Assembly (NCBI GenBank): GCA_035403965.1
Contig: DAONGE010000002.1
Coordinates: 466-64,465 of the forward strand
Direction: 5' to 3'
Origin: Candidatus Omnitrophota bacterium
GTDB taxonomy: Bacteria > Omnitrophota > Gorgyraeia > Tantalellales > Tantalellaceae
DNA: 64,000 nt
Below the pieces are notes generated by a model that was not told the origin of the DNA, made no database searches, and saw nothing but the letters and a program-made list of their open reading frames with translations. How positions within the stretch are numbered: position 1 is the stretch's first letter; every line of letters begins with the position of its first letter. Below are positions 34,333 through 63,535 of the stretch, piece after piece. The translations under genes were made by a program, and so were the position numbers.

Positions 34333-35793
34333 ATGTCACAAAAAAGTCTTAAGATCGCGTTTTTGCAGACGGGAGATGTCCCGTACCTGGGGATAATGAG
34401 CTTGTCCGCTGTCCTCAAAAAAAGAGGGTTCGTAACAGATGTGTTTTGTATCGGTATAGATAACGATATCGAGAACAAGATAATCGGATCCGGTGCGGAT
34501 ATCCTTGCCTGTAGCGCCATGACCCCTACTTTTTCCGGCATACGTAAAGTATATAGCGCCGTGAAAAAGAAAGCCCCTCATATTTATACCATATTGGGCG
34601 GGCCGCATAGCACCTTTTTCCCGAACGTTCTTCATGAAGACAAAGACCTGGATGCGATATGTATCGGCGAGGGAGAAGGCGCATTGATAGAACTTGCTAC
34701 GGCTTTACGCGATAAGAGCCCCAGGACCGATATCAAGAACATCTGGTTCAAGGATAAAGGACGCATAGTGGAGAACGAGATAAGGGACCTTATCGACGAC
34801 CTTGACGCTCTTCCTTTCCTGGACAGAGACGTGTTCTTTGAGAAGTATCCTTTTATGGCGGCAGGAACGGTACGTTTCATAACGGCCAGAGGCTGTCCCT
34901 TCCGGTGCACATATTGCTTTAATATCGGCATGCAAAGATTGTATAAAGGCAAAGGGAACTGGGTCAGATATCACAGTATAGAAAGAAGTCTTTCGGAAAT
35001 AAAGGATATTAAAGAAAGATATCCGCTTAAGTGGGTCTCTTTTATGGATGATACGTTCAACCTGGATAAAAAAAGGCTGAAAGAGTTTCTGCTTAGGTAT
35101 AAAAAAGAAATCGATGTGCCTTTTCTCTGCCAGCTCAGGGTGGATGTCACGGAAGAAGAGCAGATAGAATGGCTTAAGAACGCCGGAGTGTCGCGCATAA
35201 CCATAGGGATAGAACATGGGAACGAGACCGTCAGGAAGAACATCTTGTCGAGGAACATTAGCAACGAACAGATCCTTAACTGCGCGAAATGGATCAATGA
35301 ACGGAAAGTCCGTCTTACTACGCAGAACCTGATAGGATTGCCGTGGGAGACTGTCGATACGGCGCTTGAGACGATAAAGATAAATGCTAAAATAAAACCG
35401 GAGATCGCCAACGTTAACATACTTAACCCGTATCCTGGCACGGCGATATACAGCTTGCTGGAAAAAGAAGGATTATTGGCGGACGATTTCGATTTTAACG
35501 CGCTTTTGGACCACAGTAACTCTTATAGCAATTCACACGCCAGGATACATAGCTATGTTAAGAACAAGGTGATGCCGCAGCTTATAAGTTTACGTTGTTT
35601 TTTCTCGGTTCTTATCGCGTGCCCGTGGCTTGAGCCGCTCGTGCGGTTGCTGATAAAAATACGATATAACCGGGTCTATGAGTTCATATGGCAAGTGAGC
35701 ACCGGGACTTTTAGGGTGTCTTGGAAATACGGCGGATGGCGCGACCGAAAAGTGTTGATGAGAAAACTTTTTGCAGTTCTGATCAAAGGATAA
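34333..35793 (+). CDS. B12-binding domain radical SAM enzyme
   Basis: 486 aa; N-terminal cobalamin-binding Rossmann-like domain; CPFRCTYC (CxxxCxxC) radical SAM core. Confidence 0.85.
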   Translation: MSQKSLKIAFLQTGDVPYLGIMSLSAVLKKRGFVTDVFCIGIDNDIENKIIGSGADILACSAMTPTFSGIRKVYSAVKKKAPHIYTILGGPHSTFFPNVLHEDKDLDAICIGEGEGALIELATALRDKSPRTDIKNIWFKDKGRIVENEIRDLIDDLDALPFLDRDVFFEKYPFMAAGTVRFITARGCPFRCTYCFNIGMQRLYKGKGNWVRYHSIERSLSEIKDIKERYPLKWVSFMDDTFNLDKKRLKEFLLRYKKEIDVPFLCQLRVDVTEEEQIEWLKNAGVSRITIGIEHGNETVRKNILSRNISNEQILNCAKWINERKVRLTTQNLIGLPWETVDTALETIKINAKIKPEIANVNILNPYPGTAIYSLLEKEGLLADDFDFNALLDHSNSYSNSHARIHSYVKNKVMPQLISLRCFFSVLIACPWLEPLVRLLIKIRYNRVYEFIWQVSTGTFRVSWKYGGWRDRKVLMRKLFAVLIKG

Positions 35794-35809
35794 CGGGAGA
35801 AAAGGGAAC

Positions 35810-36061
35810 ATGGAGATAAACGAGAACGAAGTATATACCGTGCAGGAGGTGCAGAAGATCCTTAAAGTGAGCCCCAGCACGTCGATGAGGCTCATAAAAA
35901 AAGGCATAATCAGAGCCGCCAAAGTCGGGAAACAATACAGAATACTGGGCAAAGAACTGTTAAGGCTGGTCTCTCCGACGTTGGAAGACAAAGTGGGTAA
36001 AATATACAATAAAGGACGTCATTGGCTGCATGAGGACGATGATAAGGCAGAGAGCATATGA
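35810..36061 (+). CDS. Excisionase-family helix-turn-helix DNA-binding protein
   Basis: 83 aa; VYTVQEVQKILKVSPSTSMRLIKKG matches the MerR-like/excisionase HTH (TIGR01764-type). Confidence 0.6.
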   Translation: MEINENEVYTVQEVQKILKVSPSTSMRLIKKGIIRAAKVGKQYRILGKELLRLVSPTLEDKVGKIYNKGRHWLHEDDDKAESI

Positions 36062-37056
36062 GAGCCAGAGGGAAAAAGGTATTGGTGACGGGATCGGAAG
36101 GATTTATTGGGTCGCATCTGGTGGAAGGGCTTCTTGATGCCGGATATAAAGTACGGGCCTTCGTATTATATAATTCGTTCAATGCCTGGGGTTGGCTAGA
36201 TACTTTTTCAAAAGACCGGATGAAGAATGTAGAAGTATTTACGGGAGATGTAAGGGATCCTAACGGTGTGAGAAAAGCAGTAGAAGGGGTTGATACGATC
36301 TTTCACCTTGCGGCGCTGATCGGCATCCCTTTTTCATATAATTCCCCGGATACTTATGTTGACACGAATGTAAAGGGAACTCTCAATATTTTGCAGGCGG
36401 CGAGGATGTGCGGGACAAGAAGAATATTGATCACCAGTACTTCCGAGGTTTACGGGACGGCCAAATATATGCCGATAGACGAGAAACATCCTTTACAGGG
36501 CCAATCTCCATACAGTGCGACAAAGATTGCCGCGGATAAGATCTCGGAATCTTTTTACAGGTCGTTCGGATCGCCTGTCACTATCGTGCGGCCGTTCAAT
36601 ACGTACGGTCCCCGTCAGTCGGCCAGGGCCGTTATTCCGACGATAATCACGCAGCTTCTTGCCGGGAAAAAAGAGATCAGGTTAGGATCGACGTATACGA
36701 CGCGCGATCTTGTCTATGTAAAGGATACGGTAAAAGGGTTTTTGTCCATTGCCCGCGCCGACAATACGATCGGGGAGGAAATAAATATCGCCACGGGGAA
36801 AGGCCTGTCTATCGGGAAAATCGCCGAAAAAATAATAAACAGGATAAATCCTAAAACGAGGATAGTGTGTGATAAGGAAAGGGTCCGTCCGAAGAGAAGC
36901 GAAGTGGAGCATCTTTTAGGATCCAATAAAAAGATAAAAGAACTGGCGGGATGGAAACCGGAATATACGATAGATAGCGGGCTTGATGAAACTGTAAAAT
37001 GGTTTTCGGATGCAACGAATGTAAGAAACTACAAGGCGGATATATATAATGTCTGA
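36058..37056 (+). CDS. NAD-dependent NDP-sugar 4,6-dehydratase/epimerase (LegB/RfbB-like extended SDR)
   Basis: 332 aa; VTGSEGFIGSHL, STSEVYG, YSATKIAADK (YxxxK); RfbB/LegB-like dehydratase pattern. Confidence 0.7.
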   Translation: MRARGKKVLVTGSEGFIGSHLVEGLLDAGYKVRAFVLYNSFNAWGWLDTFSKDRMKNVEVFTGDVRDPNGVRKAVEGVDTIFHLAALIGIPFSYNSPDTYVDTNVKGTLNILQAARMCGTRRILITSTSEVYGTAKYMPIDEKHPLQGQSPYSATKIAADKISESFYRSFGSPVTIVRPFNTYGPRQSARAVIPTIITQLLAGKKEIRLGSTYTTRDLVYVKDTVKGFLSIARADNTIGEEINIATGKGLSIGKIAEKIINRINPKTRIVCDKERVRPKRSEVEHLLGSNKKIKELAGWKPEYTIDSGLDETVKWFSDATNVRNYKADIYNV

Positions 37057-38149
37057 GCGTATTTTTCTAGATGCCCCGGACATAGGAGTATTTGAAAAAA
37101 AGTATCTTTCTAAAGCCGTTGATTCGGGCTATGTATCAACGGTGGGGCCGTTCGTACCGGAATTCGAGAAGAAGTTCGCAAAATGTATAGGAACAAAGAA
37201 TGCGATTTCTACTCAAAGTGGGACTGCGGCCATTCATATGGCATTATATGAGATGAAAATTGGCAAAGGGGATGAGGTTATCGTGCCTGCTTTATCCTTT
37301 GTGGCAACCACAAATCCTGTGCTTTATGTCGGGGCAGAACCCGTGTTTGCCGATGTTGATCCGGACACATGGTGTATTTCGCCACTATCGATAGAAAAAC
37401 TTATTACAAAGAAAACGAAGGCGATCATTCCGGTTCATCTTTACGGAAACCCCTGCGATATGAAAACCATAAATCGTATCGCTAAGGAACATAAAATAAT
37501 GGTTATAGAAGATGCAACCGAAAGCCTTGGGGCTGTTTATTGCGGAAAATTTACCGGGGCACTGGGAAATTTTGGGTGTTTTAGCTTTAATGGAAATAAG
37601 ACCATAACTACCGGCGGAGGTGGTATGGTCGTAAGTGGCAACAAAGCGGCAATAGAGCACATAAAGTTTCTTGTTAACCAAGCCCGCGATGAGAAAAAAG
37701 GCTATTATCATCCGGAAATGGGATTTAACTATCGAATGACTAATATTGAGGCGGCACTTGGGCTTGCGCAGTTAGAACGGATGGAAAAGCTTCTTCAGAG
37801 GAAAAGAAGGATTAATGAGATATATCATGAAGAGCTTGATGGGAACGATAAAATATCGTTTCAGGGAGAATATGAGGGGGCGAAAAGTTCTGATTGGCTT
37901 AATAGCGTTCTGATCAGAGCCGATATTCGCCGAATGATAACGTTATTAAAAGAAAAAAATATTCCGGCAAGGCGGATATTCATGCCAATGACAATGTTCC
38001 CGTATTATCGTAATGCGAGGAAAGATAAACTAAGAAATACACTGGATATATATAAGAATGGCATCTGTTTGCCAAGCTCAACGCGGAACAGCGAGGATGA
38101 TATACGGTTTGTGTGCGATGTTATAAATAAAATACTTAAGGGCGCATGA
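37049..38149 (+). CDS. DegT-family NDP-4-keto-sugar aminotransferase (LegC/PglE-like)
   Basis: 366 aa; DegT fold; FSFNGNKTITTGGGG lysine region; follows the 4,6-dehydratase. Confidence 0.8.
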   Translation: MSERIFLDAPDIGVFEKKYLSKAVDSGYVSTVGPFVPEFEKKFAKCIGTKNAISTQSGTAAIHMALYEMKIGKGDEVIVPALSFVATTNPVLYVGAEPVFADVDPDTWCISPLSIEKLITKKTKAIIPVHLYGNPCDMKTINRIAKEHKIMVIEDATESLGAVYCGKFTGALGNFGCFSFNGNKTITTGGGGMVVSGNKAAIEHIKFLVNQARDEKKGYYHPEMGFNYRMTNIEAALGLAQLERMEKLLQRKRRINEIYHEELDGNDKISFQGEYEGAKSSDWLNSVLIRADIRRMITLLKEKNIPARRIFMPMTMFPYYRNARKDKLRNTLDIYKNGICLPSSTRNSEDDIRFVCDVINKILKGA

Positions 38150-38793
38150 TGAAAAAGAATAAAGATATAATCTTAATCGGTGGCGGAGGACATGCCAGAG
38201 TGATAATGGATGCTATCCTGTCGGGCGGAGTTTTTAAGATAAAAGGGATAGTTGATCCCGCGATGGGAAAAGGGACCATGGTTGCAGGGTATAAGGTTTT
38301 GGGAGGGGATGAGATCCTTGGGGAAATATTTTCTTCAGGCGTTCGCAACGCTATTGTAGCGGTTGGTTCTGTAAAACCATCAGAATTAAGAAAGAAACTT
38401 TATGAAAAAGCCAGGAAGATCGGTTTTAATTTTCCGGTAGTGATACATCCCTCTGCAGTTATCGCACGGGATGTTTTAATTGAGGAAGGAACATTTGTCG
38501 CCCCGTCAGCCACTGTAAATACCGGAAGTCGAATCGGTAAAAACGCAATAATAAACACATCGTCGTCTATCGACCATGATTGCTCCATCGGGGATTTTGT
38601 ACACATAGCTCCGGGGGTTGTATTATCCGGGGAAGTATGTGTTGGGTCGGGGACGCATGTGGGCACGGGGGCTGTTGTTGTTAACGATATTAGAATTGGG
38701 GAAAACTGTTTTATATCTGCCGGGCACAGGGTGTCCGTGGATTTGCGCGAGGGGATGAAACATTCCATGACTTTTAGGATGAAGGGAAAGTAA
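38146..38793 (+). CDS. Hexapeptide-repeat sugar N-acetyltransferase (PglD/LegH/NeuD family)
   Basis: 215 aa; N-terminal Rossmann-like ILIGGGGHARV then left-handed beta-helix hexapeptide repeats. Confidence 0.8.
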   Translation: MMKKNKDIILIGGGGHARVIMDAILSGGVFKIKGIVDPAMGKGTMVAGYKVLGGDEILGEIFSSGVRNAIVAVGSVKPSELRKKLYEKARKIGFNFPVVIHPSAVIARDVLIEEGTFVAPSATVNTGSRIGKNAIINTSSSIDHDCSIGDFVHIAPGVVLSGEVCVGSGTHVGTGAVVVNDIRIGENCFISAGHRVSVDLREGMKHSMTFRMKGK

Positions 38794-38804
38794 AGGAGAA
38801 GGAT

Positions 38805-39479
38805 ATGCCAAAAGTGCTATTTATTGCATGCCACCCGGATGATGAGACGCTGGGATGCGGTGGGACAATATTAAAGCATAAAGCCCTTGGCGATGAGATA
38901 TATTGGGCTATTTTGACCAACATAGACGAAAATAACGGATGGCCGAAGGATAAGGTTCTATCGAGACAATGTGAGATATCTGCAGTGGCAAGAGCATACG
39001 GTTTTAAAAAAGTGTTCAAACTTGATTTTCCGACGACAAAGTTAGATGCAATACCCATGAATACCATTGTGTCGGCAATTTCAAACACATTAAATGAAAT
39101 AAAACCGGAAGTCATATATGTTCCTAATAAGAGTGATATTCATAGTGACCACAAAACCACTTTTGACGCAGTTATGAGCTGCACAAAAACTTTCAGGTTC
39201 CCATATATCAAACGGGTTTTAATGTATGAGTGTCTTTCAGAAACAGAATTTGCCCCGGCTATTTCTAATTTGGCTTTTACGCCGAATGTATTTGTAAATA
39301 TAAGTGCGTACGTGTCAGAAAAAATAAAGATAATGAACATGTACGAAGGCGAAATGGGTGCGTTTCCATTTCCAAGAAGTGCGGAAAACATTGAGGCATT
39401 AGCAAGGTATCGCGGGGCGACGGCGGGTTTTTGCGGCGCAGAAGCTTTTGTTCTTATAAAGGAAAGATGTGATGATTAA
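38805..39479 (+). CDS. PIG-L/LmbE-family N-acetyl-sugar deacetylase
   Basis: 224 aa; N-terminal HPDDE motif (ACHPDDETLGCGG) and downstream His/Asp metal ligands. Confidence 0.75.
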   Translation: MPKVLFIACHPDDETLGCGGTILKHKALGDEIYWAILTNIDENNGWPKDKVLSRQCEISAVARAYGFKKVFKLDFPTTKLDAIPMNTIVSAISNTLNEIKPEVIYVPNKSDIHSDHKTTFDAVMSCTKTFRFPYIKRVLMYECLSETEFAPAISNLAFTPNVFVNISAYVSEKIKIMNMYEGEMGAFPFPRSAENIEALARYRGATAGFCGAEAFVLIKERCDD

Positions 39480-40494
39480 AAAAAATAGAACAATGATAAT
39501 CGCCGAGGCCGGTGTTAACCACAACGGGGAGATCGAACTGGCTAAAAAACTAATAGACGCGGCGGCTTTTGCAGGTGCCGACGCTGTGAAGTTTCAGCTT
39601 TTTGTCCCGGAATTATTGGTTTCTCCGAAAGCCCAGATGTCATTATATCAGCAAAATAATATGGGAAAAAAAATGTCCCAGATGGAAATGTTAAAACAAT
39701 ATGTATTTGACGAAAAGATTTTAATAAAACTGATAGAATATGCCAAAAAAAGACGGATATCTCTTTTGATAACCCCGTTTGATAATGAAAGCCTGAAAGT
39801 GGTCAAACGGCTTGGGCGGCCATACATTAAGGTTGATTCCGGCGCTATAACAGATCATCCATTCCTTGAAAAGATAGCCAAAACAGGCATCCCGGTTATA
39901 TTGTCTACGGGGGCTTCGACAGTAAAAGAGATAAAAGAAGCGGTGGCGGTGATAGAACAATATCACAGGAAGATCTGTATACTCCATTGTACTTCATTGT
40001 ATCCCTCCCCGTATAATAAAATAAACCTGAATGCAATTGTTACAATGATGAAAGCATTTAAATATCCGGTTGGATATTCAGACCATTCTATCGGCATTGA
40101 AGTAGCGATAGCTGCCGTTGCTATGGGGGCTAAGGTTATAGAGAAACATTTTACACTAAATAAAAAAATGAAAGGTCCGGATCATAAAGCGTCGATAGAT
40201 CCGTATGAACTGGTCGCAATGGTTAGAGCTATAAGAAATGTGGAAGATGCATTAGGATCTTTTGAAAAAAAACCTTCACCGGATGAAAAGACAGTGATGA
40301 AAAATGGGAGAAGAAGCATTGTTGCTTTGCAGAATATGGATAAAGGCACGATTTTGCGAGAAAAAGATCTGGCTGTTAGGCGTCCGGGTACCGGTATTTC
40401 TCCGAAATATTTCAAGAGGGTAATTGGTAAGGTTTTATTACGTAAAGTTGATAGAGATGAACCTCTAATGTTGTCACATATAGGAGATATCTGA
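39469..40494 (+). CDS. NeuB-family nonulosonic acid synthase (N-acetylneuraminate/legionaminate synthase-like)
   Basis: 341 aa; IIAEAGVNHNGEIELAKKLIDAA..GADAVKFQ TIM-barrel N-terminus and C-terminal SAF/antifreeze-like domain. Confidence 0.85.
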   Translation: MMIKKNRTMIIAEAGVNHNGEIELAKKLIDAAAFAGADAVKFQLFVPELLVSPKAQMSLYQQNNMGKKMSQMEMLKQYVFDEKILIKLIEYAKKRRISLLITPFDNESLKVVKRLGRPYIKVDSGAITDHPFLEKIAKTGIPVILSTGASTVKEIKEAVAVIEQYHRKICILHCTSLYPSPYNKINLNAIVTMMKAFKYPVGYSDHSIGIEVAIAAVAMGAKVIEKHFTLNKKMKGPDHKASIDPYELVAMVRAIRNVEDALGSFEKKPSPDEKTVMKNGRRSIVALQNMDKGTILREKDLAVRRPGTGISPKYFKRVIGKVLLRKVDRDEPLMLSHIGDI

Positions 40495-40496
40495 AA

Positions 40497-42326
40497 ATGG
40501 ATAGTTTACTGATCACAGTGCCGGTCTCAAGTCCCTTGCATCCTCAGGCGATGTTGCCTTGTTTGCAAGCTTTTTTGGAAAAAAAGGGTTTTTCCGTTAA
40601 GAGCATAGATTCAAATATTGATTTTTTTTGGTATATGCTGGGCAAAGATTATGACATATCGACGCTTAAGGCATTCGATGAAAGCCCCATTAACGTATTG
40701 TCATTTTATAATAAGATGGAAAGTGATCTCGCTAAAAAATCAGTTAAATATAAAGGGTGTAGGGTTGGGCTTCGTAGTGTGAAAGTTTGTTATAATAGAA
40801 CTTCTTTTGAAGACGTGGCAAAGGCGGTATATGATACCGAAGCCAATCCGTTTATTGAATATTATGACCAGCTTATAGAAAAAAAGATAGCACCTGAAAG
40901 TCCCAAAATAGTTGGGATTTCCATAACTTTTCAAGATCAGATCGTCGCGGCATTTACCTTAGCGCGTATGCTTAGAGAGAAAATGCCTTCGGTAAAAATA
41001 GTTCTTGGCGGACAAATGATTACGCGGTGCCATGACACTCTTTTTGGTTCCGACGAACTGAGAACATTTTGGGACTATCTTGTGTTATGGGAGGGGGAAG
41101 TGCCGCTATGGGATATACACGAAGAGATCATTAACCATAAAGAGGTGGAGTATATAAACGTGTTGGTAAATGGGAAACCATTCAAGGGTATTGACAGAAG
41201 CAAAAAAGGGCTTTCGGCGAATGAACAGTATCCGCCGGTTTTTAAGGATATAGAGTTCGATAGGTATTTTTATTCTGATTTTCTTATACCGATACAAACA
41301 TCGAGAAGCTGTTATGGCAAATGTGAGTTTTGTGCTATTCCCTTTGGTGCAAATTCTAATTTTAGGACAAAAACTGCCGATCAGTTATTGGAACATGTAA
41401 TGCGGATAAAAGAAGAAGTAAAGGCCAAATACGGGCGAGATGCCATATTCTTTAAATTTATGGATGATACTTCTTTGTCGAAAGTGCTATTCGAATTTTC
41501 AAAAAAAGTGGAAAAGATGGAAGTGAATATTAAATGGGAAGCATTTGTGCGACTTGATGAGGATTATGCGGACGACGAATTTATGGCCCAGCTTTACAGG
41601 GGTGGCTGCCGGAAACTTTGCTGGGGTTTAGAATCCAGCGATCCCGATATTCTTGAAAAGATGAACAAAAAAAATACCAATAATCGGAGCACCAGAATTT
41701 TAAACGCTTCAGCGAAAGCGGGCATTCTGAATTTTTGTTTCGTCCTTGTGGGCTTCCCGGGCGAGACACAGAAACAGAGAGATAATATGACGGAATACAT
41801 TATAAACAATCCGGACGTGCATGTTTTAACGATATCGACGTTTGATTTTACGAGGTTTTCAAATATGCACATAAATTATTCATATCCAAATAAATACGGC
41901 CTTTTTAGCGAAAAAGCTCAAGGTTTTGAAGTCAGGTTGCCATATGTAATTGATGGGTCAGATAATTGGAAGCATATGATAGTTACACAGGCTCATGAGA
42001 TGCTTTTTAAAATAATTTCAAAGCGCCCGGATATCGGTTTTATGAGCTTGTTTCCGGATCAGATCAGAATGACGTATTGCGATATTTTTGGGAATGGATG
42101 GGGAAGGGAATTTGTAAAAAAATATGGTGAAGATAATATCAGATCTTTTTTAACCGGAACGGAAGATTTTATTAAAGCTTTCAAGGATGGGGATGAATTG
42201 GATGTGTCAAAATTACCCGAACCTATTCTGAGGGAATATCATCGCGAAATAGAAGATTTAGAGGCGATCAGACAAGCTATTGAAAGAAGAAAAGCCTATG
42301 AAAATAGGCGGATGGATCAGGTATGA
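40497..42326 (+). CDS. B12-binding domain radical SAM enzyme (second copy)
   Basis: 609 aa; N-terminal B12-binding-like region; CYGKCEFC CxxxCxxC radical SAM motif. Confidence 0.75.
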   Translation: MDSLLITVPVSSPLHPQAMLPCLQAFLEKKGFSVKSIDSNIDFFWYMLGKDYDISTLKAFDESPINVLSFYNKMESDLAKKSVKYKGCRVGLRSVKVCYNRTSFEDVAKAVYDTEANPFIEYYDQLIEKKIAPESPKIVGISITFQDQIVAAFTLARMLREKMPSVKIVLGGQMITRCHDTLFGSDELRTFWDYLVLWEGEVPLWDIHEEIINHKEVEYINVLVNGKPFKGIDRSKKGLSANEQYPPVFKDIEFDRYFYSDFLIPIQTSRSCYGKCEFCAIPFGANSNFRTKTADQLLEHVMRIKEEVKAKYGRDAIFFKFMDDTSLSKVLFEFSKKVEKMEVNIKWEAFVRLDEDYADDEFMAQLYRGGCRKLCWGLESSDPDILEKMNKKNTNNRSTRILNASAKAGILNFCFVLVGFPGETQKQRDNMTEYIINNPDVHVLTISTFDFTRFSNMHINYSYPNKYGLFSEKAQGFEVRLPYVIDGSDNWKHMIVTQAHEMLFKIISKRPDIGFMSLFPDQIRMTYCDIFGNGWGREFVKKYGEDNIRSFLTGTEDFIKAFKDGDELDVSKLPEPILREYHREIEDLEAIRQAIERRKAYENRRMDQV

Positions 42327-44215: not shown

Positions 44216-44223
44216 GAGGAATC

Positions 44224-46692: not shown

Positions 46693-46696
46693 AATA

Positions 46697-54696: not shown

Positions 54697-54709
54697 AAAA
54701 GGAGCGACA

Positions 54710-55498: not shown

Positions 55499-55508
55499 TA
55501 GGCGGTAA

Positions 55509-56231: not shown

Positions 56232-56243
56232 TGCAGGGGTCTG

Positions 56244-57230
56244 ATGGCGAAAAAAGTACTTATTATTACGGAAACGGGGACAAATATCGGATTGGGGCAC
56301 CTGTCAAGATGTTTTGGTTTATATGAAGCGCTTGAGGCCGTGGGTGCGGTGCCTGAGATAATACTGAAACTCGACGGCGCTTTTGAAATATCTTTTGAAG
56401 ACAAAAATATTAAAGTGCTCGACTGGTGGGAAGAGAATAATATAAACCGGATCGATAATAGCGGGTACGGGGCTGTGGTGCTTGATTCGTATAACGCCAC
56501 TCCTGGGATTTATGAGTATATGATGGGAGCCGACTTTCCGGTGTTTTTTGATGACATGGGATCGCGATATGAGAAAGGGACGGTGATAAACGGTGCCGTT
56601 AAAGCCGAGACATTGGATTATCCACAGAGGGGAAATGTCTCATATTTGCTCGGGACAAAATATCTTTGTTTGCGAAAAGTTTTTTGGGATATTGCGGACA
56701 AGAAAAACAAAAAGGATGTCGGTAATATTCTTGTGGCTTTAGGAGGCGGAGATCCACGGGGCATAACAAGGATTGTTTTGGAGGCAATCTCGGAAAATTT
56801 TCCTACGATCAGCAAAAATATCGTTCTTGGGAAAGGATCCGCAGGGTATGATGTTGAGAAATATGTTACTGGAAAAGACAAGGTGTTCCAATCCCTTTCC
56901 GGAACGGCTATGAAAAGGCTGGAAGAGAACGCGGATATATGTATCTGCGGCATGGGACAGACTTTGTATGAATGTGCATGCGTGGGTACCGGTGCGATAA
57001 GTATAGCGATGTCGGATAATCAGAGATATGACGTCGATAGGTGGCGGGATGTAGGATTTATGGAGTATGCCGGTATGTGGTCGGACGGGGATCTTACGGA
57101 AAAGTTGATCGGTAAGATAACCTTTCTTTTGGATAAAACAGAGCGAGAGCGAAGATCTTGCATCGGGAAAAAACTTGTGGACGGGCAAGGATCTTCCAGG
57201 GTCGCCGGATATATTGTCGAAAGAATATGA
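56244..57230 (+). CDS. pseG: UDP-2,4-diacetamido-2,4,6-trideoxy-beta-L-altropyranose hydrolase PseG-like
   Basis: 328 aa; VLIITETGTNIGLGHLSRC N-terminus (GT-B MurG-like, GxGHxxR) characteristic of PseG; lies between pseF and pseI. Confidence 0.65.
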   Translation: MAKKVLIITETGTNIGLGHLSRCFGLYEALEAVGAVPEIILKLDGAFEISFEDKNIKVLDWWEENNINRIDNSGYGAVVLDSYNATPGIYEYMMGADFPVFFDDMGSRYEKGTVINGAVKAETLDYPQRGNVSYLLGTKYLCLRKVFWDIADKKNKKDVGNILVALGGGDPRGITRIVLEAISENFPTISKNIVLGKGSAGYDVEKYVTGKDKVFQSLSGTAMKRLEENADICICGMGQTLYECACVGTGAISIAMSDNQRYDVDRWRDVGFMEYAGMWSDGDLTEKLIGKITFLLDKTERERRSCIGKKLVDGQGSSRVAGYIVERI

Positions 57231-57239
57231 AAGGTACGA

Positions 57240-58574
57240 ATGAAATATCAGGAAATGTTGGATAAAAAAATAGAAACGATGAGCATGGGCGAATTGTCGC
57301 AAAAAATAGAAAAGCCTCTTTTGAGTAGGCAGATCAAAAGGGTTTTTGAGAATTCTGTTTTTTATAGGGATAAATTCAAAAAAAACGGAATCAATAAAAA
57401 ATATTTTACTAGCGGGAAAATATCCATTCATGATCTGCCATTTACCGAAAAGGCCGAGATAATCGAGGATCAAAGAACAAATGCACCGTTTGGAAATTTG
57501 CTAGCCGTTCCGGCCGATAAAATTATAAGGATACACCGGACATCCGGATATTCCGGAAGGCCTGTTCTTATCGCGTTGACGGCTAACGATATAAAGGATA
57601 CGCATGAAGCCGGGGCGAGGATGTTCTGGTGTGCCGGAGTAAGGCCGGATGATATTGTTGTTCATTGTTTGAACTATTGTCTATGGATAGGAGGAATAAC
57701 CGATCATCTTTCTCTGGAAGCGGTTGGCGCTACGGTGATCCCTTATGGCGTGGGCAATACAAAAAAACTACTGGAACTTATGATACAACTGTCTCCGACG
57801 GCCATTTCATGTACGCCGTCATATTTGCGTAGGCTTGAACAAGTTTTGGCTGAAGAATTCAGGATGAAACCAAATGAATTGGGTATAAAGAAAGGCGTAT
57901 TCGGCGGTGAGGCCGGTATTCAAGATCCTGTCATAAGGAACAGTATAGAAAAAAAATGGGATATGCGTGCGATAGACGCAAATTATGGGGTTTCTGATGT
58001 TTTAAGCGCTTTTGGCTCGGAATGTGATGTACGTAACGGTCTTCACTACCATGCTCAGGGTATAGTACTTCCGGAACTTATTGATCCGGTAACCGGGGAA
58101 AAGCTTGAGATCAAAGCCGGGCAGACCGGTGAAATGGTATATACGAATCTGAAACGGGAGGCCCAGCCTCTTATCAGATTCAGAACGCGTGATACTGTGG
58201 AGATCGTGCATGTAGGAAAATGCCCATGCGGACGATCAGGTTTCAGATTCAAAGTTTTGGGACGAAGCGACGATATGCTGGTAGTGAAAGGGATAAATGT
58301 TTTTCCAGCGGCTATCCAGACGGTTTTGTTACGGTATCCGGAAGAACTGAACGGTGAATTTGAAATTGTCCTTTCCGGGAAACCTCCGTATGAGAGTCTT
58401 TCCGTCAAAGTTGAAATAAGAAAGGATATGAAACCGTGCGATGCCAGGCGCCTTAAGTGTAAAATAGAGAACGACATCAAAGAAGAACTTACCGTAAAGA
58501 CAGTCATTGAGCTTGTGCGGGAAAACAGCATTCCGAGAGAGGGAGATAAGGTAAAGCGTATCAGAAGAATTTAG
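57240..58574 (+). CDS. Phenylacetate-CoA ligase-like (PaaK/CapK/F390 synthetase family) adenylate-forming enzyme
   Basis: 444 aa; PaaK-type N-terminal domain and truncated ANL core (TSGYSGRPV P-loop analogue). Confidence 0.65.
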   Translation: MKYQEMLDKKIETMSMGELSQKIEKPLLSRQIKRVFENSVFYRDKFKKNGINKKYFTSGKISIHDLPFTEKAEIIEDQRTNAPFGNLLAVPADKIIRIHRTSGYSGRPVLIALTANDIKDTHEAGARMFWCAGVRPDDIVVHCLNYCLWIGGITDHLSLEAVGATVIPYGVGNTKKLLELMIQLSPTAISCTPSYLRRLEQVLAEEFRMKPNELGIKKGVFGGEAGIQDPVIRNSIEKKWDMRAIDANYGVSDVLSAFGSECDVRNGLHYHAQGIVLPELIDPVTGEKLEIKAGQTGEMVYTNLKREAQPLIRFRTRDTVEIVHVGKCPCGRSGFRFKVLGRSDDMLVVKGINVFPAAIQTVLLRYPEELNGEFEIVLSGKPPYESLSVKVEIRKDMKPCDARRLKCKIENDIKEELTVKTVIELVRENSIPREGDKVKRIRRI

Positions 58575-58594
58575 GTAAAGGCAAAGGGGATAAT

Positions 58595-59503
58595 ATGAGG
58601 AGAAAAAATTCAGTTAAAGCGTTAAAGATCGCAACATTCCTTAAGGCCAAGCTTTTCGGCAAGGACGTTGATATAAAAAAAGTAGCGTCGATAGGCGACT
58701 TGGAAGAAGGGGCATTGTGCTTTGTACGTAAATTCGATGAGCGTTATGTAGATGCGCTGAAAAAGTGCGGCAAATGTTTTGTTGTCTGTACCGATGAATA
58801 TAAAGGGAAAATAAATTGCTCCTATGTGGTTTCGGATGATCCCGGACTTGATTTTTCCAGGGCTGTAAAGAAATTTTTTTACGAACAAGATAAAAAAGGG
58901 GTAATAAATAAAAAAGCGGATATTGATAAAAAGGCCAGTATCGGTAAAGGCGTGGGTATTGGGGCGTACAGCGTGATCGGTCCGGAAGTCAAGATCGGCG
59001 ACGACACTGTGATACACGAAAATGTGGTTATCAAAGGCCGGGTAGTTATAGGTAAAGGGTGCACAATAAAGTCCGGTGCGGTTATCGGAGAAGAGGGTTT
59101 TGGTTTTGAATATGATGAATTCGGGTCGCCCGAGCATTTTACGCACATCGGAGGGATACAGATAGGAGACAATGTCTGGATAGGGGCGGGATCGACGATA
59201 GAGATAGCGCATATAGATAGTACTGTGATAAAGGATAATGTAAAAATAGACGATCTGGTACAGGTGGGACATAATTGTCTGCTCGGTAAAAACAGCATAG
59301 TTGCCGCCGGTACTATTATCTGTGGCGCGGTTACTGTCGGGGAAAATTGCTGGGTAGCTCCGAATTGCAGTATAAAAGAGAAGCTAAAAATAGGTGACGG
59401 ATCTCTTGTAGGATTGGGCTCGGTCGTTATAAACGATGTTCAGGAAAAAACGGTAGTCGCCGGAAATCCGGCTAAGATCCTGAGAACAATAGATAAAAGG
59501 TGA
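58595..59503 (+). CDS. LpxD-like hexapeptide-repeat N-acyltransferase (acyl-ACP-dependent family)
   Basis: 302 aa; LpxD-like N-terminal domain then a long left-handed beta-helix of [LIV]GxxxxI repeats. Confidence 0.7.
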   Translation: MRRKNSVKALKIATFLKAKLFGKDVDIKKVASIGDLEEGALCFVRKFDERYVDALKKCGKCFVVCTDEYKGKINCSYVVSDDPGLDFSRAVKKFFYEQDKKGVINKKADIDKKASIGKGVGIGAYSVIGPEVKIGDDTVIHENVVIKGRVVIGKGCTIKSGAVIGEEGFGFEYDEFGSPEHFTHIGGIQIGDNVWIGAGSTIEIAHIDSTVIKDNVKIDDLVQVGHNCLLGKNSIVAAGTIICGAVTVGENCWVAPNCSIKEKLKIGDGSLVGLGSVVINDVQEKTVVAGNPAKILRTIDKR

Positions 59504-59507
59504 TATT

Positions 59508-60632
59508 ATGCAGAAAAAAACGCAGGGAAAAGAAATTATATCGGATTTTTTAAAAGAAAAAATGAGCAAAATCGCCGATAAATACGGCAGGGACTCTAGG
59601 GAATATAAGGGCTTGGCATTACAGTATGTGTTCGATCCGCGGGAAGAAATAAGCGATTATAAGACGGAGCGGCGCAGACATTACGAGGCGGATATCGAGA
59701 AGGACTCAGAGGGTCACGTCCTTAAAGGCGTTGAGCGACTGTATCGGAGGGCGGCGGTGATCGAGCTTACGACCGCCTGTTTTGCGCGATGCAGGTGGTG
59801 TCTTAGGGCGAATTATAATCCTTTCACGCTCTCGGAAGATGAGATAGTTCTTGCCGCTAAGTATTTTGGCAATAAGGCAAACCGGGAAAATCTTCGGGAA
59901 ATACTGATCACCGGCGGGGATCCTCTGGCGGCGCCGGGGCTTCTGAATATCGCGATAAACGCGATAATGAAACATGCGCCCAATATAGAAATAATCCGAA
60001 TAGGAACGCGGCTCCCTGTACATAAACCATCGGCTGTTTTCAGCGATGATACCAAAAAAGTATTACGTAAAAGAGAAGGGATCAGGCTTGAGATCGGAAC
60101 GCAAATAAATCATCCGATTGAATTGTTTAAAGAATCTCAGGATGCGTATAAGTATCTGTTGGATTCTGTATCGAAGATATACAATCAGCAGGTTCTTCTT
60201 AAGGACGTTAATGATGATATTGATACGTTAGCGGCGCTTTATGACAGTCTGCGCCGGCTTAATATCGAGTCTCACTATATGTTCCATTGCGTTCCGATAA
60301 GGGGGATGCGCCATCACAGAACTACTATCGCAAAGGGGCTGGAATTAATAAAAAAGCTTACGTCTTCAGGTTGTATTTCAGGACGGAGTAAACCGATGTA
60401 TACGGCCATGACCGATATCGGCAAGATCACTTTTTATGAGAATACTATAATAGAGAAAAGAGCGGATCTTGTTTTGCTGCAAAGTTCTTATAAAAAAGAA
60501 GAAAGATTGAAGTGGAATCCGCTTTGGAAAATGCCGGAGTCTTGTGAAGTGGATGATGGCGGGTACTTGAGGGTATGGTACAAAGACGCTGAAATGCACA
60601 ATAAAGGATGGAGAGCGCCATATGCGCTTTGA
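59508..60632 (+). CDS. KamA-family radical SAM aminomutase (lysine/glutamate 2,3-aminomutase-like)
   Basis: 374 aa; CFARCRWC (Cx3Cx2C in the KamA-type context), TGGDPL motif, KamA-like length. Confidence 0.7.
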   Translation: MQKKTQGKEIISDFLKEKMSKIADKYGRDSREYKGLALQYVFDPREEISDYKTERRRHYEADIEKDSEGHVLKGVERLYRRAAVIELTTACFARCRWCLRANYNPFTLSEDEIVLAAKYFGNKANRENLREILITGGDPLAAPGLLNIAINAIMKHAPNIEIIRIGTRLPVHKPSAVFSDDTKKVLRKREGIRLEIGTQINHPIELFKESQDAYKYLLDSVSKIYNQQVLLKDVNDDIDTLAALYDSLRRLNIESHYMFHCVPIRGMRHHRTTIAKGLELIKKLTSSGCISGRSKPMYTAMTDIGKITFYENTIIEKRADLVLLQSSYKKEERLKWNPLWKMPESCEVDDGGYLRVWYKDAEMHNKGWRAPYAL

Positions 60633-60642
60633 GGGGAAAGGA

Positions 60643-61695
60643 ATGAAAAACTTTCGTGTTGGGAATAAGTCTGTCGGGGAAGACGCCCCAGCTTTTATTA
60701 TTGCCGAAATATCCGCTAATCACGGACAGGATTTTGACAGGGCCGTTCGGACGATCGCGGCGGCCGCCGAGTGTGGGGTAGATGCGGTAAAATTCCAGAC
60801 ATATACGCCGGACACGATCACGATGAAGTCTAATGATAAAAGTTTTAGGATAGATGAAAAACTTTGGAGAGGGAAGACGTTGTATGATCTTTACAAAGAG
60901 GCCTATACGCCGTGGCATTGGTTCAAAAAACTGAAACGTGCGGCGGAAGACCACGGATTGGTATTTTTCTCCACGGCTTTTGACAGAACCGCTGTGGATC
61001 TTTTGGAAGAGATCGATGTCCCGGCGCATAAAATTGCCTCGTTCGAGCTGGTGGACATACCGCTCATAGAATACGCGGCGGGTACCGGGAAACCGTTATT
61101 CATGTCGACAGGGATGGCATCGATACGTGAAGTGTCAGATGCCGTGCAGGCGGCCAAAAGGTCCGGCACCAAAAAGATATGTTTATTGAAATGCGTGAGC
61201 GGATATCCGGCCAGGCCGGAGGATTTCAATCTCAACACGATACCTGACATGGGGAAGCGGTTCGGCGCTGTGACGGGTTTATCCGACCACAGTCTAGGGA
61301 CAGTCGTTTCCGTGGCCAGTATACCTTTGGGCGCGAAGGTGGTAGAGAAGCATTTTACATTGTCGAGGAAGCTGAGAACGCCAGATAATTTCTTTTCGCT
61401 TGAACCGGCCGAGATGAAGAGTCTTGTGGAAAATGTCCGTTCCGTTGAGGCAAGTCTTGGCCGTGTTAAATATGGCTGTTCGTCCGAAGAAGAAAAGAAG
61501 AACATAAAATATAGAAGATCTCTTTTTGCCTCAGCGGACATAAAAAAAGGAGAGGCCTTTACAGAAGAGAATGTAAGATCCATTAGACCGGCAGGAGGTC
61601 TTGCACCCAAATATATGCGTAGTGTGATCGGAAAAAAAACTCGAATAGAGATCAAAAAAGGCACCCCGATAACATGGGGCGCTGTACAAAGGTAG
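60643..61695 (+). CDS. pseI: Pseudaminic acid synthase PseI (NeuB family)
   Basis: 350 aa from ATG 60643 (GAGGGGAAAGGA RBS); FIIAEISANHGQDFDRA...GVDAVKFQTY; C-terminal SAF domain; sits in the pseB/C/F/G cluster. Confidence 0.8.
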   Translation: MKNFRVGNKSVGEDAPAFIIAEISANHGQDFDRAVRTIAAAAECGVDAVKFQTYTPDTITMKSNDKSFRIDEKLWRGKTLYDLYKEAYTPWHWFKKLKRAAEDHGLVFFSTAFDRTAVDLLEEIDVPAHKIASFELVDIPLIEYAAGTGKPLFMSTGMASIREVSDAVQAAKRSGTKKICLLKCVSGYPARPEDFNLNTIPDMGKRFGAVTGLSDHSLGTVVSVASIPLGAKVVEKHFTLSRKLRTPDNFFSLEPAEMKSLVENVRSVEASLGRVKYGCSSEEEKKNIKYRRSLFASADIKKGEAFTEENVRSIRPAGGLAPKYMRSVIGKKTRIEIKKGTPITWGAVQR

Positions 61696-61699
61696 TGAT

Positions 61700-63535
61700 A
61701 TGGAGAAAGCTCCGGATGAACGAGTAAAAAAGACCCTGATCTTACAGGCGCCCGGGCGGGGGATCCTCCCGGGAGAGGGCCCGATATATCTGGGGCCATG
61801 GTGTTGCTTGGACAGGGACCGTGCGCTTGCGGGATCCGGTGCGATAACGGTATCTATACCCGGATATACTACGGATGATCTTTTGAAGAACGCGGAAATA
61901 TGCGAAAAGGCATACACCCATATGCTCGGCGTCCTGACGTCAACGCTTAATGGCATGCACGGTGTGAAAAAGAGTGCTGCATACTGGTCTGTTATGCTCA
62001 ATCCGTGGCTTATGTTCCACATCAATATGATGCATGAACGGTACGTCAGGATACGGGCGGCTCTGGAGAAGTACGGGAAAGATCTTTTTTTTGATCCTCT
62101 CCCGGAAATAAAATACTGTGCACCGGCCGATAACTATGAGTTCCTTGATACACGCGTGGGCAGCGAGGATTACAATCTGTGTTTATCGTCCGTTATCCTT
62201 TCTTTGCTGATCCCCGGCAGCGCAAAGGAGATCGCTGCGGACGATAAAGGTAACCCCGGGATCAGGGGTAAAAGCGCGGCAGTTTCGTTAAGATCCATGA
62301 TAAAAAAAACCGTGTTGACATTACAGCAAAGACTGCGTGGACAAAGCGATATCGCGATGATAGATATGTTACACATGGATTTCGGGGATATGACGAAGTT
62401 CAATACGCTCATGGGGGGCGTATGTTCGCTTGACCATATTTTCGGATCGGGGCGGCGCGCCATGCCGGCGCACGATATAAAGATGCGGTCCTGTCTTGAA
62501 TTCAAGGATCGGGATGAAGACGTTTTTACGGAGTCAGTCAAAAAGAGCATCAGGTTCACTATGCCGCGTTGTTGCGTGGAAGGGTATGCGGATACGGCCG
62601 GCCAGGTATCCAACATACGTCGTAAGCCGCCCAAGATGATACTTTCGGATACTGGCTGGTACTTTAACGAAATTTTCAAGTGTTACGCCGCCGAGATGCA
62701 GGAAAAGGGAGTAAAGCTCGTTGGCGTGCAGCACGGTGGGAATTACGGGTTCAGCCTTTATCACAGTGTGTTCGCTTTCGAAAAAGAGAATAAATATAAA
62801 TTCATAAGCTGGGGATGGGGGCAGGGCAGAGAGAACACCAAAGACCTGCCGGACCCGGCCCTTTCCGCTATCGGGCAGGTATCGGCGAAGAAGAACGGTA
62901 CGGTGCTTTATGTGTCGTTCAATGATCATGTGTATCCGTACTCTTTGTCCGGGTACCCGGGCGCCGACGGCATGGAAAAATATTTTGACGATCAAATGTT
63001 TTTTCTGGGGATGCTCGGGGATGATATGAAAAGGAAAGTGCGTTATCGTGCCGCCCGCTGTGATCACGGGAGGGGGATCCTCGCAAGGGTAAAGGCAGTG
63101 TCAGACCTTATCGGTTTTGCCGGAGAAGAGAAATGCACCCGCCTGATGGGCCGCGCGAGTATAGTCGTTGTGGATCACCCGATGACCGCGTTCATAGAAG
63201 CGCTGGTGATGAATGTGCCGCTACTTCTTTTTTGGGATAGGACGCTATGGAGGATGAACGAAGAAGCGAAAAGATATTTTGACGGGTTTAGGAAAGCCGG
63301 TGTTCTTTTTGACGGCCCTGCCGCGGCGGCCTCGCAGCTTAAAGAAGTATATGACGATCCCGCGTCATGGTGGGAAAGGAAAGAGATACAGGAACACAGA
63401 GAGAGGTTCGTTAATAGATACGGCCAGAATAACAGGGAATGGGCGGCCATATGGGTCCGGGAACTGAAAGCGCTGTGCCCGGGCACGGACGCAAACAGAG
63501 GAGGGACAGGATTTGTCGGTAATAAAATTTTTTAG
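61700..63535 (+). CDS. Large hypothetical protein (611 aa); candidate nonulosonic-acid/glycosyl transferase
   Basis: No motif I can assign by eye; soluble; terminal position in the Pse module directly before an ABC exporter. Confidence 0.5.
   Translation: MEKAPDERVKKTLILQAPGRGILPGEGPIYLGPWCCLDRDRALAGSGAITVSIPGYTTDDLLKNAEICEKAYTHMLGVLTSTLNGMHGVKKSAAYWSVMLNPWLMFHINMMHERYVRIRAALEKYGKDLFFDPLPEIKYCAPADNYEFLDTRVGSEDYNLCLSSVILSLLIPGSAKEIAADDKGNPGIRGKSAAVSLRSMIKKTVLTLQQRLRGQSDIAMIDMLHMDFGDMTKFNTLMGGVCSLDHIFGSGRRAMPAHDIKMRSCLEFKDRDEDVFTESVKKSIRFTMPRCCVEGYADTAGQVSNIRRKPPKMILSDTGWYFNEIFKCYAAEMQEKGVKLVGVQHGGNYGFSLYHSVFAFEKENKYKFISWGWGQGRENTKDLPDPALSAIGQVSAKKNGTVLYVSFNDHVYPYSLSGYPGADGMEKYFDDQMFFLGMLGDDMKRKVRYRAARCDHGRGILARVKAVSDLIGFAGEEKCTRLMGRASIVVVDHPMTAFIEALVMNVPLLLFWDRTLWRMNEEAKRYFDGFRKAGVLFDGPAAAASQLKEVYDDPASWWERKEIQEHRERFVNRYGQNNREWAAIWVRELKALCPGTDANRGGTGFVGNKIF

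Follow-up and report, generated by a model that had tools for sequence, protein, structure and literature searches.

Which sugars are made by a gene block that holds the genes for two different nine-carbon sugars, interleaved with radical S-adenosylmethionine (SAM) enzymes and acyl-carrier machinery? The question was raised by positions 34333-63535 of a 64,000-nucleotide stretch of DNA from Candidatus Omnitrophota bacterium (GCA_035403965.1, contig DAONGE010000002.1, positions 466 to 64,465 of the forward strand; hereafter the window), in which an earlier note, made from the sequence alone, had described combined pathways for two nonulosonic acids (NulOs), one of the legionaminic acid (Leg) type and one of the pseudaminic acid (Pse) type. 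The answer given here, to which we assign slightly better than even chances, is that one operon combines the two NulO pathways with three add-on modules (termed cassette A, cassette B and module C) and would yield two sugars, one of the Leg type whose N5 bears a modified amino acid as its new acyl group and one of the Pse type with a beta-aminoacyl group on N7; both are what we infer from the genes.

All 29 open reading frames (ORFs) of the block were found on the + strand at the positions given by the earlier note, intact and closely packed, with spacings of at most 20 bp between neighbours, overlaps in 13 pairs, and coding sequence accounting for 29175 of the 29203 bases. A sigma-70 consensus promoter (34273-34301, +) precedes them, with TTGACA, a 17 nt spacer containing the TG of an extended -10 element, and TATAAT (12/12 match), and direct reading of the sequence places an AGGAG and then the ATG at 34333 on its 3' side. 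The promoter scan returned 6 sites against 4.8 expected, this one being the sole perfect site. The description of a co-directional, operon-like block behind a consensus promoter was thus upheld, but not the placing of the end of the locus at 63535, as an ABC transporter, a large methyltransferase and further glycosyltransferases follow on the parent contig.

All 29 proteins were scanned against Pfam and NCBIfam, and the scores were set against the curated cut-offs. On these profile scores, the genes of a putative Leg-type core comprise a LegB-type NAD-dependent 4,6-dehydratase (36058-37056; TIGR04180, 486.5 bits vs 475), a LegC-like aminotransferase (37049-38149; TIGR04181, 411.2 bits vs 420, just below the cut-off, with 372 bits for the DegT Pfam model), and a NeuD/PglD-family N-acetyltransferase in the LegH role (38146-38793; TIGR03570, 189.7 bits vs 160.8, with PglD_N and Hexapep domains), the last being a family-level match only, as the model covers the NeuD/PglB/VioB family. 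For the LegC-like protein, TIGR04181 was the top model and the PseC model reached 275.6. The core continues with a NeuB-type NulO synthase in the LegI role (39469-40494; TIGR03569, 417.9 bits vs 399.65, the PseI model giving only 276) and a NeuC-type hydrolysing 2-epimerase in the LegG role (47559-48728; TIGR03568, 369.5 bits vs 235.9). As TIGR03568 and TIGR03569 cannot separate Leg from neuraminic acid (Neu) enzymes, Leg is preferred because of the LegB/LegC context. Two further members are assigned at the domain level only: a PtmE-like sugar-1-phosphate nucleotidyltransferase with CBS and NTP_transferase domains (49818-50897; 116 bits) and a first CMP-nonulosonate synthetase, LegF/PseF-like (50912-51631; CTP_transf_3, 95 bits; PseF model TIGR03584, 169.8 bits vs 205.7). 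Between the acetyltransferase and NeuB genes lies a PIG-L/LmbE-family de-N-acetylase (38805-39479; Pfam PIG-L, 86.3 bits). These genes, like all others of the block, are on the + strand.

The profile scores likewise point to a Pse-type core, made up of the inverting UDP-N-acetylglucosamine (UDP-GlcNAc) 4,6-dehydratase PseB (51628-52608; TIGR03589, 501.3 bits vs 407.75), the aminotransferase PseC (52610-53779; TIGR03588, 488.4 bits vs 423.5), a PseG-like UDP-sugar hydrolase (56244-57230; TIGR03590, 104.8 bits, E 5.8e-30, below the cut-off of 153.55) and the pseudaminic acid synthase PseI (60622-61695; TIGR03586, 455.8 bits vs 340.25). The PseG-like protein had no match in Pfam or among PDB sequences, and its gene holds the same position in a related locus (L009; related loci are cited by L numbers). 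None of the 29 block proteins matched the PseH model of NCBIfam; the sole GNAT-like protein had no NCBIfam match and travels with cassette B. By these assignments, the Pse branch would be canonical in only four of six steps. Of the two complete pathways announced by the earlier note, the Leg set is therefore present, with LegC just below its cut-off, whereas the Pse set lacks PseH. The individual gene assignments were borne out by the Pfam and NCBIfam searches of every ORF, with LegC, PseG and PseF just below or below cut-off. Domain searches also confirmed the two NeuB-family synthases, the two CTP_transf_3 genes, the four interleaved radical SAM enzymes (two B12-binding, one distantly SPASM/twitch-related, one of the KamA family) and the carrier protein with its adenylating enzyme.

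Cassette A occupies the space between the PseG-like and PseI genes. Its first member is a PaaK-like acyl-coenzyme A (CoA) ligase (57240-58574; TIGR02155, 270.7 bits vs 646) whose matches among solved structures include PaaK (1e-64) and 2-hydroxyisobutyryl-CoA synthetase (2.5e-48). The second, an LpxD-like N-acyltransferase with hexapeptide repeats (58595-59503; PRK00892, 219.7 bits vs 207), aligned with LpxD across almost its full length and matched LpxD structures at 2e-30, with a weak match to the LpxD N-terminal domain (24.0 vs a cut-off of 30.8 bits). The third is a KamA-family radical SAM and pyridoxal phosphate (PLP) enzyme, a putative amino acid 2,3-aminomutase (59508-60632; KamA family TIGR00238, 118.9 bits vs 199.2), for which the lysine, arginine and glutamate aminomutase and EpmB models of NCBIfam were all far under cut-off. 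Its residues C91/C95/C98 (CxxxCxxC), R100 and K306 were invariant in 24 sequences and aligned with C125/C129/C132, R134 and the PLP-binding Lys337 of lysine 2,3-aminomutase (LAM; 2A5H). Identity with LAM itself was ruled out, as the two residues that bind the lysine side chain are absent: Asp293 falls on a variable column (V262) and Asp330 on a gap. The protein is probably a KamA-superfamily aminomutase that is not specific for lysine, judging from these residues. Given the absence of PseH and the position of the LpxD-like gene, between those for the PseG-like protein and PseI, the simplest reading is that the LpxD-like protein N-acylates the PseC product, and its sequence and position make it most likely a substitute for PseH.

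The KamA-like protein had 1775 homologs at E<=1e-10. Scanning one genome per species gave at least 577 loci, of which the best 80 were fetched; the related loci, 135 in all with those of cassette B, were compared with the window proteins by tblastn. All three cassette A genes were present in 30 of the 80, in phyla including Acidobacteriota, Planctomycetota, Hydrogenedentota, Elusimicrobiota, Bacteroidota, Desulfobacterota, Omnitrophota, Calditrichota and Nitrospinota. The KamA-like gene was paired with a PaaK-like gene in 36/80 loci and with one for a DltA-like adenylating enzyme, whether or not a carrier protein was also encoded, in 12/80, mainly Alphaproteobacteria including SAR11. Among the 43 KamA-like loci with at least 18 kb of flank, a NulO synthase was located within 10 kb in 16 and three or more core NulO genes in 18; the chance expectation for such co-location is far below 1%, as a rough estimate that was not computed. 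The gene order in L009 (CTP_transf_3, PseG-like, PaaK-like, LpxD-like, KamA-like, PseI) is that of the window. In three Nitrosopumilaceae loci (L034, L046, L076) and one of Pelagibacteraceae (L060), the KamA-like gene adjoins Pse/Leg-type genes together with an LpxD-like gene, and in a further Pelagibacteraceae locus (L054) it does so with a DltA-like gene; tailoring of the cassette A type may thus affect the surfaces of highly abundant ocean microbes, marine Thaumarchaeota and SAR11.

Known 2,3-aminomutases of the KamA family, KamA/AblA and EpmB, have partners that use their product, EpmA for EpmB and AblB for AblA. The KamA-like gene is commonly paired in the same manner, here with the PaaK-like ligase and the LpxD-like sugar N-acyltransferase, and unlike in the known systems the predicted acceptor is a nucleotide sugar. 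Its common pairing with a carboxylate-activating enzyme (PaaK-like, DltA-like or ATP-grasp) would fit a free beta-amino acid as product. The ATP-grasp case was seen in the only inspected locus of those with a lone KamA-like gene, in Streptomyces aurantiacus (L071, 9971-13593), where the gene overlaps one encoding an ATP-grasp ligase (PreAtp-grasp and PGM1_C domains), followed by an MFS transporter gene. No sugar genes were found near the KamA-like gene of L071, and this locus probably makes a small metabolite containing a beta-amino acid.

Cassette B extends over 40497-47548, with the addition of the PIG-L gene and probably of the first gene of the block (34333-35793). It is anchored by B12-binding radical SAM enzyme B (40497-42326; 609 aa), with an N-terminal B12-binding domain and a radical SAM core, whose full-length homologs (44-69% identity) were found in Nitrospirota, Omnitrophota, Poribacteria, Magnetovibrio and others, none of them named. 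The following gene encodes a 380-aa putative amide-bond ligase (42323-43465) that belongs to no sequence family and was assigned the CofE fold by two independent methods. It had no sequence match in Pfam (F420_ligase), NCBIfam or the PDB, and a PDB profile search gave 0 hits; an exhaustive profile search for a sequence bridge to CofE, among 1.84 billion representatives, returned 35 hits only, the distant ones without a Pfam domain. The next protein is an N-terminal-nucleophile (Ntn), Cys2-type acyltransferase or hydrolase, C45/AAT-like (43466-44215; Pfam AAT, 31.7 bits vs 23.2; C45 family, 43 bits). Its start, MCTIG...KNRDK, was kept in 18/20 homologs and is the signature of Cys2 N-terminal-nucleophile amide hydrolases and acyltransferases. 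The remaining genes encode a class I SAM-dependent methyltransferase (44203-44988; Methyltransf_25/11/12), an acyl/peptidyl carrier protein (44966-45214; Pfam PP-binding, 30.2 bits vs 20.8), a stand-alone amino-acid adenylating enzyme of the DltA or nonribosomal peptide synthetase (NRPS) A-domain type (45211-46692; AA-adenyl-dom, 224 bits, and DltA, 227 bits, both below cut-off) and a 288-aa GNAT-like protein (46682-47548; weak Acetyltransf_9 match, 24 bits vs 25). In the alignment, the adenylating enzyme retained the amino-group-binding Asp (FDIS motif) and the A10 Lys, which are the only certain positions of a specificity code that was read by hand; its nearest solved structures were the A domains of the NRPS LgrA, DltA and a prolyl-carrier-protein ligase. 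B12-binding radical SAM enzyme A (34333-35793; 486 aa; Pfam B12-binding, 61.3 bits, Radical_SAM, 80.7 bits) was under every NCBIfam equivalog cut-off, with CysS (2.7e-14) and AprD4 (6e-14) as nearest solved structures; a homolog with 49% identity lies directly 3' of a DltA-like gene in L128.

Radical SAM enzyme B was found in 55 metagenome loci, and the counts were taken over the 44 that hold most of the gene. The gene for the CofE-fold protein follows directly 3' in 35 of them, and nearby genes included the methyltransferase in 22 (51-61% identical), the C45-like Ntn protein in 21, the DltA-like adenylating enzyme in 21 and more B12-radical SAM genes in 15. The carrier protein, the GNAT-like gene and the PIG-L-NeuB pair recurred in fewer loci. 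The GNAT-like homologs (42-48% identical) adjoin the carrier protein and adenylating enzyme or NeuC in L090, L094 and L129, another being present on a short contig (L136), and the PIG-L-NeuB pair (59-67% identity) stands 5' of the radical SAM enzyme B gene in L103, L123, L130 and L131. A complete Leg-type cluster, L094, holds the whole of cassette B, which adjoins Pse-type genes in L096, L097 and L119. In a Magnetovibrio metagenome-assembled genome (L143) and in a second Omnitrophota genome, the cassette B set was accompanied by NeuB, PIG-L, a formyltransferase and SPASM radical SAM enzymes.

Two related loci show further arrangements of these genes. On L094, a 501-aa ORF (13054-14559) fuses the C45-like Ntn protein to the cassette B methyltransferase, which links the functions of the two. 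In Omnitrophota, a related NulO locus (L145; Logan SRR14739666_291502) has five radical SAM genes around NeuB, three of them B12-type, as well as genes for an MbnB/TglH/ChrH-family protein, WbqC, an Antibiotic_NAT acetyltransferase and an M28-like peptidase, a heavier tailoring set than that of the window.

Overall, cassettes A and B often adjoin NulO synthases, in bacteria and in archaea. Across phyla, the cassette proteins retained 44-69% identity over their full length and invariant catalytic motifs, and this wide recurrence strengthens the case for their being functional. The recurrence supports the tailoring part of the claim that a novel modified sugar is likely; the sugar itself is still deduced from the genes.

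Module C lies between PseC and the PseG-like gene and consists of an aldo/keto reductase (53776-54696; Pfam Aldo_ket_red, 124.9 bits), a 262-aa short-chain dehydrogenase/reductase (SDR) of the adh_short_C2 type (54710-55498; Pfam, 170.4 bits) and the second CTP_transf_3 cytidylyltransferase (55509-56231; Pfam, 96.6 bits; PseF model unmatched). The triad was also found in L067. In Acinetobacter baumannii prophages, EpaA, a fusion of CTP_transf_3 (N-terminal half) and Aldo_ket_red (C-terminal half), and EpaB, a 262-aa adh_short_C2 protein, convert Pse5Ac7Ac to its 8-epimer, as determined by nuclear magnetic resonance (PMC12053666). Module C has the same three Pfam domains adjoining Pse genes and an SDR of the same family and length as EpaB; EpaA is fused, whereas here the genes are separate and in the order aldo/keto reductase, SDR, CTP_transf_3. 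By this analogy, the second CTP_transf_3 gene is read here as part of a putative epimerisation module. A tblastn search of the SDR against a phage collection returned generic SDRs only, at about 31% identity, and was uninformative on kinship with EpaB.

In the route proposed from these genes, PIG-L would strip the N-acetyl group derived from GlcNAc, which becomes N5 of the nine-carbon Leg-type sugar, and cassette B would rebuild a substituent at that position. The adenylating enzyme would charge the carrier protein with an amino acid, which the B12-radical SAM enzyme or enzymes and the SAM methyltransferase may then alter in its carrier-bound form. The CofE-fold protein would make an amide bond, possibly a glutamyl-type link, and either the Cys2 Ntn protein or the GNAT-like protein would take the acyl group off its thioester and place it on the free amine of the sugar. 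On the Pse branch, the KamA-family enzyme would produce a beta-amino acid, though not beta-lysine, which the PaaK-like ligase would convert to the CoA thioester, and the LpxD-like protein would load the beta-aminoacyl group onto the 4-amino group of the PseC product, a UDP-sugar, giving Pse5Ac7(beta-aminoacyl); the predicted order is PseB, PseC, LpxD-like protein, PseG-like protein, PseI, then activation. The aldo/keto reductase, the SDR and the second cytidylyltransferase would act as a split EpaA/EpaB, perhaps epimerising C8. Finally, a LIC12162-family transferase encoded by the last gene of the block (61700-63535; TIGR04331, 330.2 bits vs 225), a candidate NulO glycosyltransferase, would move the CMP-activated sugar to the polymer; a homolog (26% identity) precedes PseC in L096 and L097. 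The family is presumably named after a Leptospira interrogans gene, to judge from the LIC locus-tag prefix.

Several observations weigh against this route. Neither the host nor any other organism that carries cassette A or B has a known product. All of the tailoring enzymes scored under the curated cut-offs of characterised families, making their substrates guesses, and the PseG-like, PseF-like and LegC-like core proteins were under theirs as well. The link to CofE is one of fold, no sequence bridge having been found in the searches above, and module C resembles EpaA/EpaB in domain content alone. Seventeen KamA-like loci had no other window gene and no NulO gene nearby, and in a Poribacteria locus (L144) the neighbours of cassette B are other amino-sugar genes, a NulO synthase being absent for 10 kb around. 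Moreover, the B12-radical SAM fold is common to methylases (TsrM, MgmA, CysS, TokK), the sugar diol-dehydratase AprD4 and OxsB; as it is shared with enzymes that are not methylases, it leaves methylation unestablished, and these enzymes could act on the sugar skeleton instead of the acyl group.

That last point leads to the strongest rival explanation, which is nevertheless unlikely: the B12-radical SAM enzymes, and perhaps also the radical SAM enzyme encoded at 48725-49810, would modify the sugar skeleton and not a carrier-bound acyl group, by C-methylation (as GenK) or deoxygenation (as AprD4), to yield an ulosonic acid with ten carbons or with further deoxygenation. The nearest folds and sequences for both B12 enzymes included AprD4, an enzyme that dehydrates an aminoglycoside sugar, cassette B adjoins NeuB in the magnetotactic alphaproteobacterium Magnetovibrio, and as many as five radical SAM genes occur in related loci. 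However, radical SAM enzyme B keeps its tightest company with the genes for the CofE-fold, Ntn, methyltransferase and adenylating proteins and not with the synthase, and the carrier-protein chemistry would need another purpose.

The cassettes could instead decorate another amino sugar of the same polysaccharide, such as the products of the two DegT aminotransferases encoded further 5' in the window (21369-22499 and 23723-24847), their interleaving with Leg and Pse genes reflecting shared regulation only. This is improbable. It would explain the Poribacteria locus, where cassette B adjoins DegT and sugar C-methyltransferase genes, as well as the presence of more amino-sugar genes upstream in the window and the finding that a NulO synthase lies within 10 kb of the KamA-like gene in only 16 of the 43 long loci; it would leave unexplained why PseH is absent and an LpxD-like gene sits between the PseG-like and PseI genes in both the window and L009, why the order PIG-L, NeuB, radical SAM enzyme B recurs (L103, L130, L131), and why the genes are translationally coupled within the NulO block. 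That the extra genes are inactive passengers or a recombination mosaic, with only standard di-N-acetyl sugars made, is highly improbable, as nothing specific favors it beyond two hints of past rearrangement, namely a gene of the HTH_17/excisionase type and, at the 5' edge, a degraded AlgX-like gene, and against it stand the 29/29 intact, tightly packed ORFs, the cross-phylum conservation of the cassette proteins and the recovery, from five independent assemblies, of the block's 3' part from the PaaK-like to the LIC12162 gene together with its downstream flank.

The re-acylated Leg-type and beta-aminoacylated Pse-type sugars would extend a range of known modifications that is wider than the acetyl, acetimidoyl and hydroxybutyryl groups to which the earlier note had confined it. 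Known NulO tailoring includes glyceroyl, di-O-methylglyceroyl, alanyl, glutamyl, lactoyl and formyl groups or a free amine, and 8-epimerisation, and the alanyl and glutamyl NulOs give amino-acid acylation as such a precedent. Clostridium botulinum is reported to carry an N-methyl-glutamyl Leg, although the texts searched here yielded only the general statement that glutamyl modifications exist. Two NulO pathways in one cluster also have precedent in Campylobacter and Leptospira. The Campylobacter jejuni flagellin island likewise holds Pse and Leg genes in one locus, with a PtmE-type CBS-nucleotidyltransferase, LegB/C/G/I/F and PseB/C/G/I/F homologs, and tailoring genes between core genes (ptmG/ptmH between legC and neuB). 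Its tailoring, however, is acetimidoyl, N-methylacetimidoyl and di-O-methylglyceroyl, PseH is present, the target is flagellin, and radical SAM, carrier-protein, adenylating, LpxD-like and KamA-like genes are not described there. The setting here is a Wzy/ABC-type polysaccharide locus without a flagellin gene, and this context ruled out a flagellin glycosylation island. The Leptospira interrogans cluster gives di-N-acetylated NulOs and Neu5Ac, with radical SAM or carrier-protein tailoring unreported. Closest to the PIG-L step is the Leg cluster of Ca. Kuenenia stuttgartiensis, where a deacetylase and a formyltransferase between leg genes lead to free-amine and formyl CMP-NulOs (10.64898/2026.04.20.719630). 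The de-N-acetylase is placed among leg core genes in both; re-acylation is a simple formyl transfer in Kuenenia, whereas PIG-L here stands beside a seven-gene cassette for an amino-acid-derived group, and in Magnetovibrio L143 a formyltransferase and PIG-L occur together with cassette B.

In clorobiocin and coumermycin biosynthesis (CloN1-7), an adenylated amino acid is loaded on a carrier protein and modified, dedicated acyltransferases move it to a deoxysugar, and a B12-radical SAM enzyme carries out a methylation. By analogy, cassette B may follow the same logic, with the differences that the CloN1-7 acceptor is the noviose hydroxyl of an antibiotic and not a NulO amine, and that a CofE-fold or Ntn component is absent.

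A full-text search of the searchable library found no paper tying radical SAM enzymes to NulO, Pse, Leg or flagellin-glycan tailoring, in line with the statement that radical and acyl-carrier chemistry on a NulO scaffold has not been described. The aminomutase matches were limited to one paper on osmolytes and one on a Legionella class-III aminotransferase, a broad search on F390/PaaK brought up general NulO papers only, those for Omnitrophota with sialic acid found nothing relevant, and glutamyl groups, radical chemistry and carrier proteins go unmentioned in a 2026 Clostridium Pse paper. Precedent was thus not found for cassettes A and B, while deacetylation and 8-epimerisation are already known. 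Two radical SAM genes, CFT03427_1545 and CFT03427_1558 (MoaA/NifB/PqqE/SkfB type), appear in a table of phase-variable genes of Campylobacter fetus, which also lists methyltransferase, SDR and formyltransferase genes with nearby locus tags (PMC6321876); the two are a possible cultured example of radical SAM enzymes in a glycan-modification locus.

Two further genes complete the block. The radical SAM enzyme encoded at 48725-49810 (361 aa; Radical_SAM, 51.6 bits) is distant kin of the SPASM/twitch family, its best NCBIfam matches being distant and all below cut-off; no SPASM domain was detected in it and its matches among solved structures were weak. Only distant kin (23-34% identity) were found in other NulO loci, for example directly 5' of NeuB in L143, and no conserved partner gene was seen among the related loci. 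Between radical SAM enzyme A and LegB, a small HTH_17/excisionase-type DNA-binding protein is encoded (35810-36061; 83 aa; Pfam HTH_17, 2e-13; MamR-like, 41 bits, below cut-off). It had no homolog among the 135 related loci and so is lineage-specific; the gene may represent a local regulator or a mobile-element relic.

The block is part of a surface-polysaccharide locus. Genes on its 5' side encode an LptD-like protein, two UDP-sugar dehydrogenases, a carbamoyltransferase with an SxtJ-like partner, GDP-mannose-dehydratase-type enzymes, the two DegT aminotransferases mentioned above, GT2 glycosyltransferases, a Wzy_C protein and PMT_2/YfhO-type membrane proteins. Just 5' of the LptD-like gene and the polysaccharide locus is a pair of neighbouring genes for GGDEF diguanylate cyclases (8850-11668, +), of which the first also has a GAF domain. 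Within the locus, the carbamoyltransferase (Carbam_trans_N/C) is followed by the small SxtJ-like protein (16753-19145, +), a pair that hints at carbamoylation of a sugar; as the family name suggests, SxtJ accompanies the carbamoyltransferase of the saxitoxin cluster (sxtI/sxtJ). Three large membrane proteins in a row directly 5' of the operon, a PMT_2-type GT-C, a YfhO-like protein and another PMT_2-type GT-C (28248-33910, +), may attach the glycan outside the cytoplasm.

A gap of 423 bp separates these genes from the block and contains the promoter and a degraded gene. The latter, placed between the last GT-C gene and the operon promoter, is the 3' remnant of an AlgX-type SGNH acetyltransferase gene (33930-34202, +; ...DNHWNPYAH...), with in-frame stops 5' of it, no plausible full-length ORF, and a Pfam ALGX score of 26.3 bits against a cut-off of 26.5; it suggests an earlier rearrangement at the junction before the operon. 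Identical proteins placed the window on a 212-kb JGI metagenome contig (sample 3300010352), and their NCBI label is Candidatus Omnitrophota. Regarding the assembly, proteins identical to those of the region from about 57.2 to 63.5 kb (PaaK-like to LIC12162) and of the following ABC transporter were found in five independent assemblies, which ruled out a chimera for the 3' end of the block; the remainder, 5' of about 57.2 kb, is known from the parent contig alone. Rfam and tRNA scans of the window gave no matches.

The gene-level case is strong and general across phyla, and the chemistry is entirely what we infer from it. Nonulosonic acids stand at the outer tip of microbial surface glycans and govern charge, phage and immune recognition, and aggregation. 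Mass-spectrometry surveys have recorded many unassigned NulO derivatives, and their authors call knowledge of the modifying enzymes scarce. The window and the 135 related loci tie two conserved radical-SAM-containing cassettes to these sugars, by which an open chemical question becomes testable enzymology. The candidate novelties are a new KamA-family specificity, a sugar N-acyltransferase replacing PseH, a B12-radical SAM family without a characterised member and a CofE-fold ligase outside cofactor F420 biosynthesis. The cassettes could serve as genome-mining markers for non-standard sialic-acid-like sugars in uncultured phyla, and the new enzymes would be useful for making modified nonulosonic acids, which are difficult to obtain by chemical synthesis. 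Beyond this locus, the suggestion can be made only tentatively that cassettes A and B are general, cross-phylum machines for never-described NulO substituents or for backbone C-methylation. If so, the substituents would be radical-SAM-made beta-aminoacyl groups and C-methylated, carrier-built aminoacyl or glutamyl groups, and backbone C-methylation would be the missing biosynthetic explanation for the 'higher-carbon ulosonic acids' that mass spectrometry has recently revealed in Magnetospirillum. Through related cassettes in SAR11, Nitrosopumilus, Planctomycetota and Omnitrophota, such tailoring would in that case shape the cell surfaces of microbes that count among the most abundant uncultured ones.

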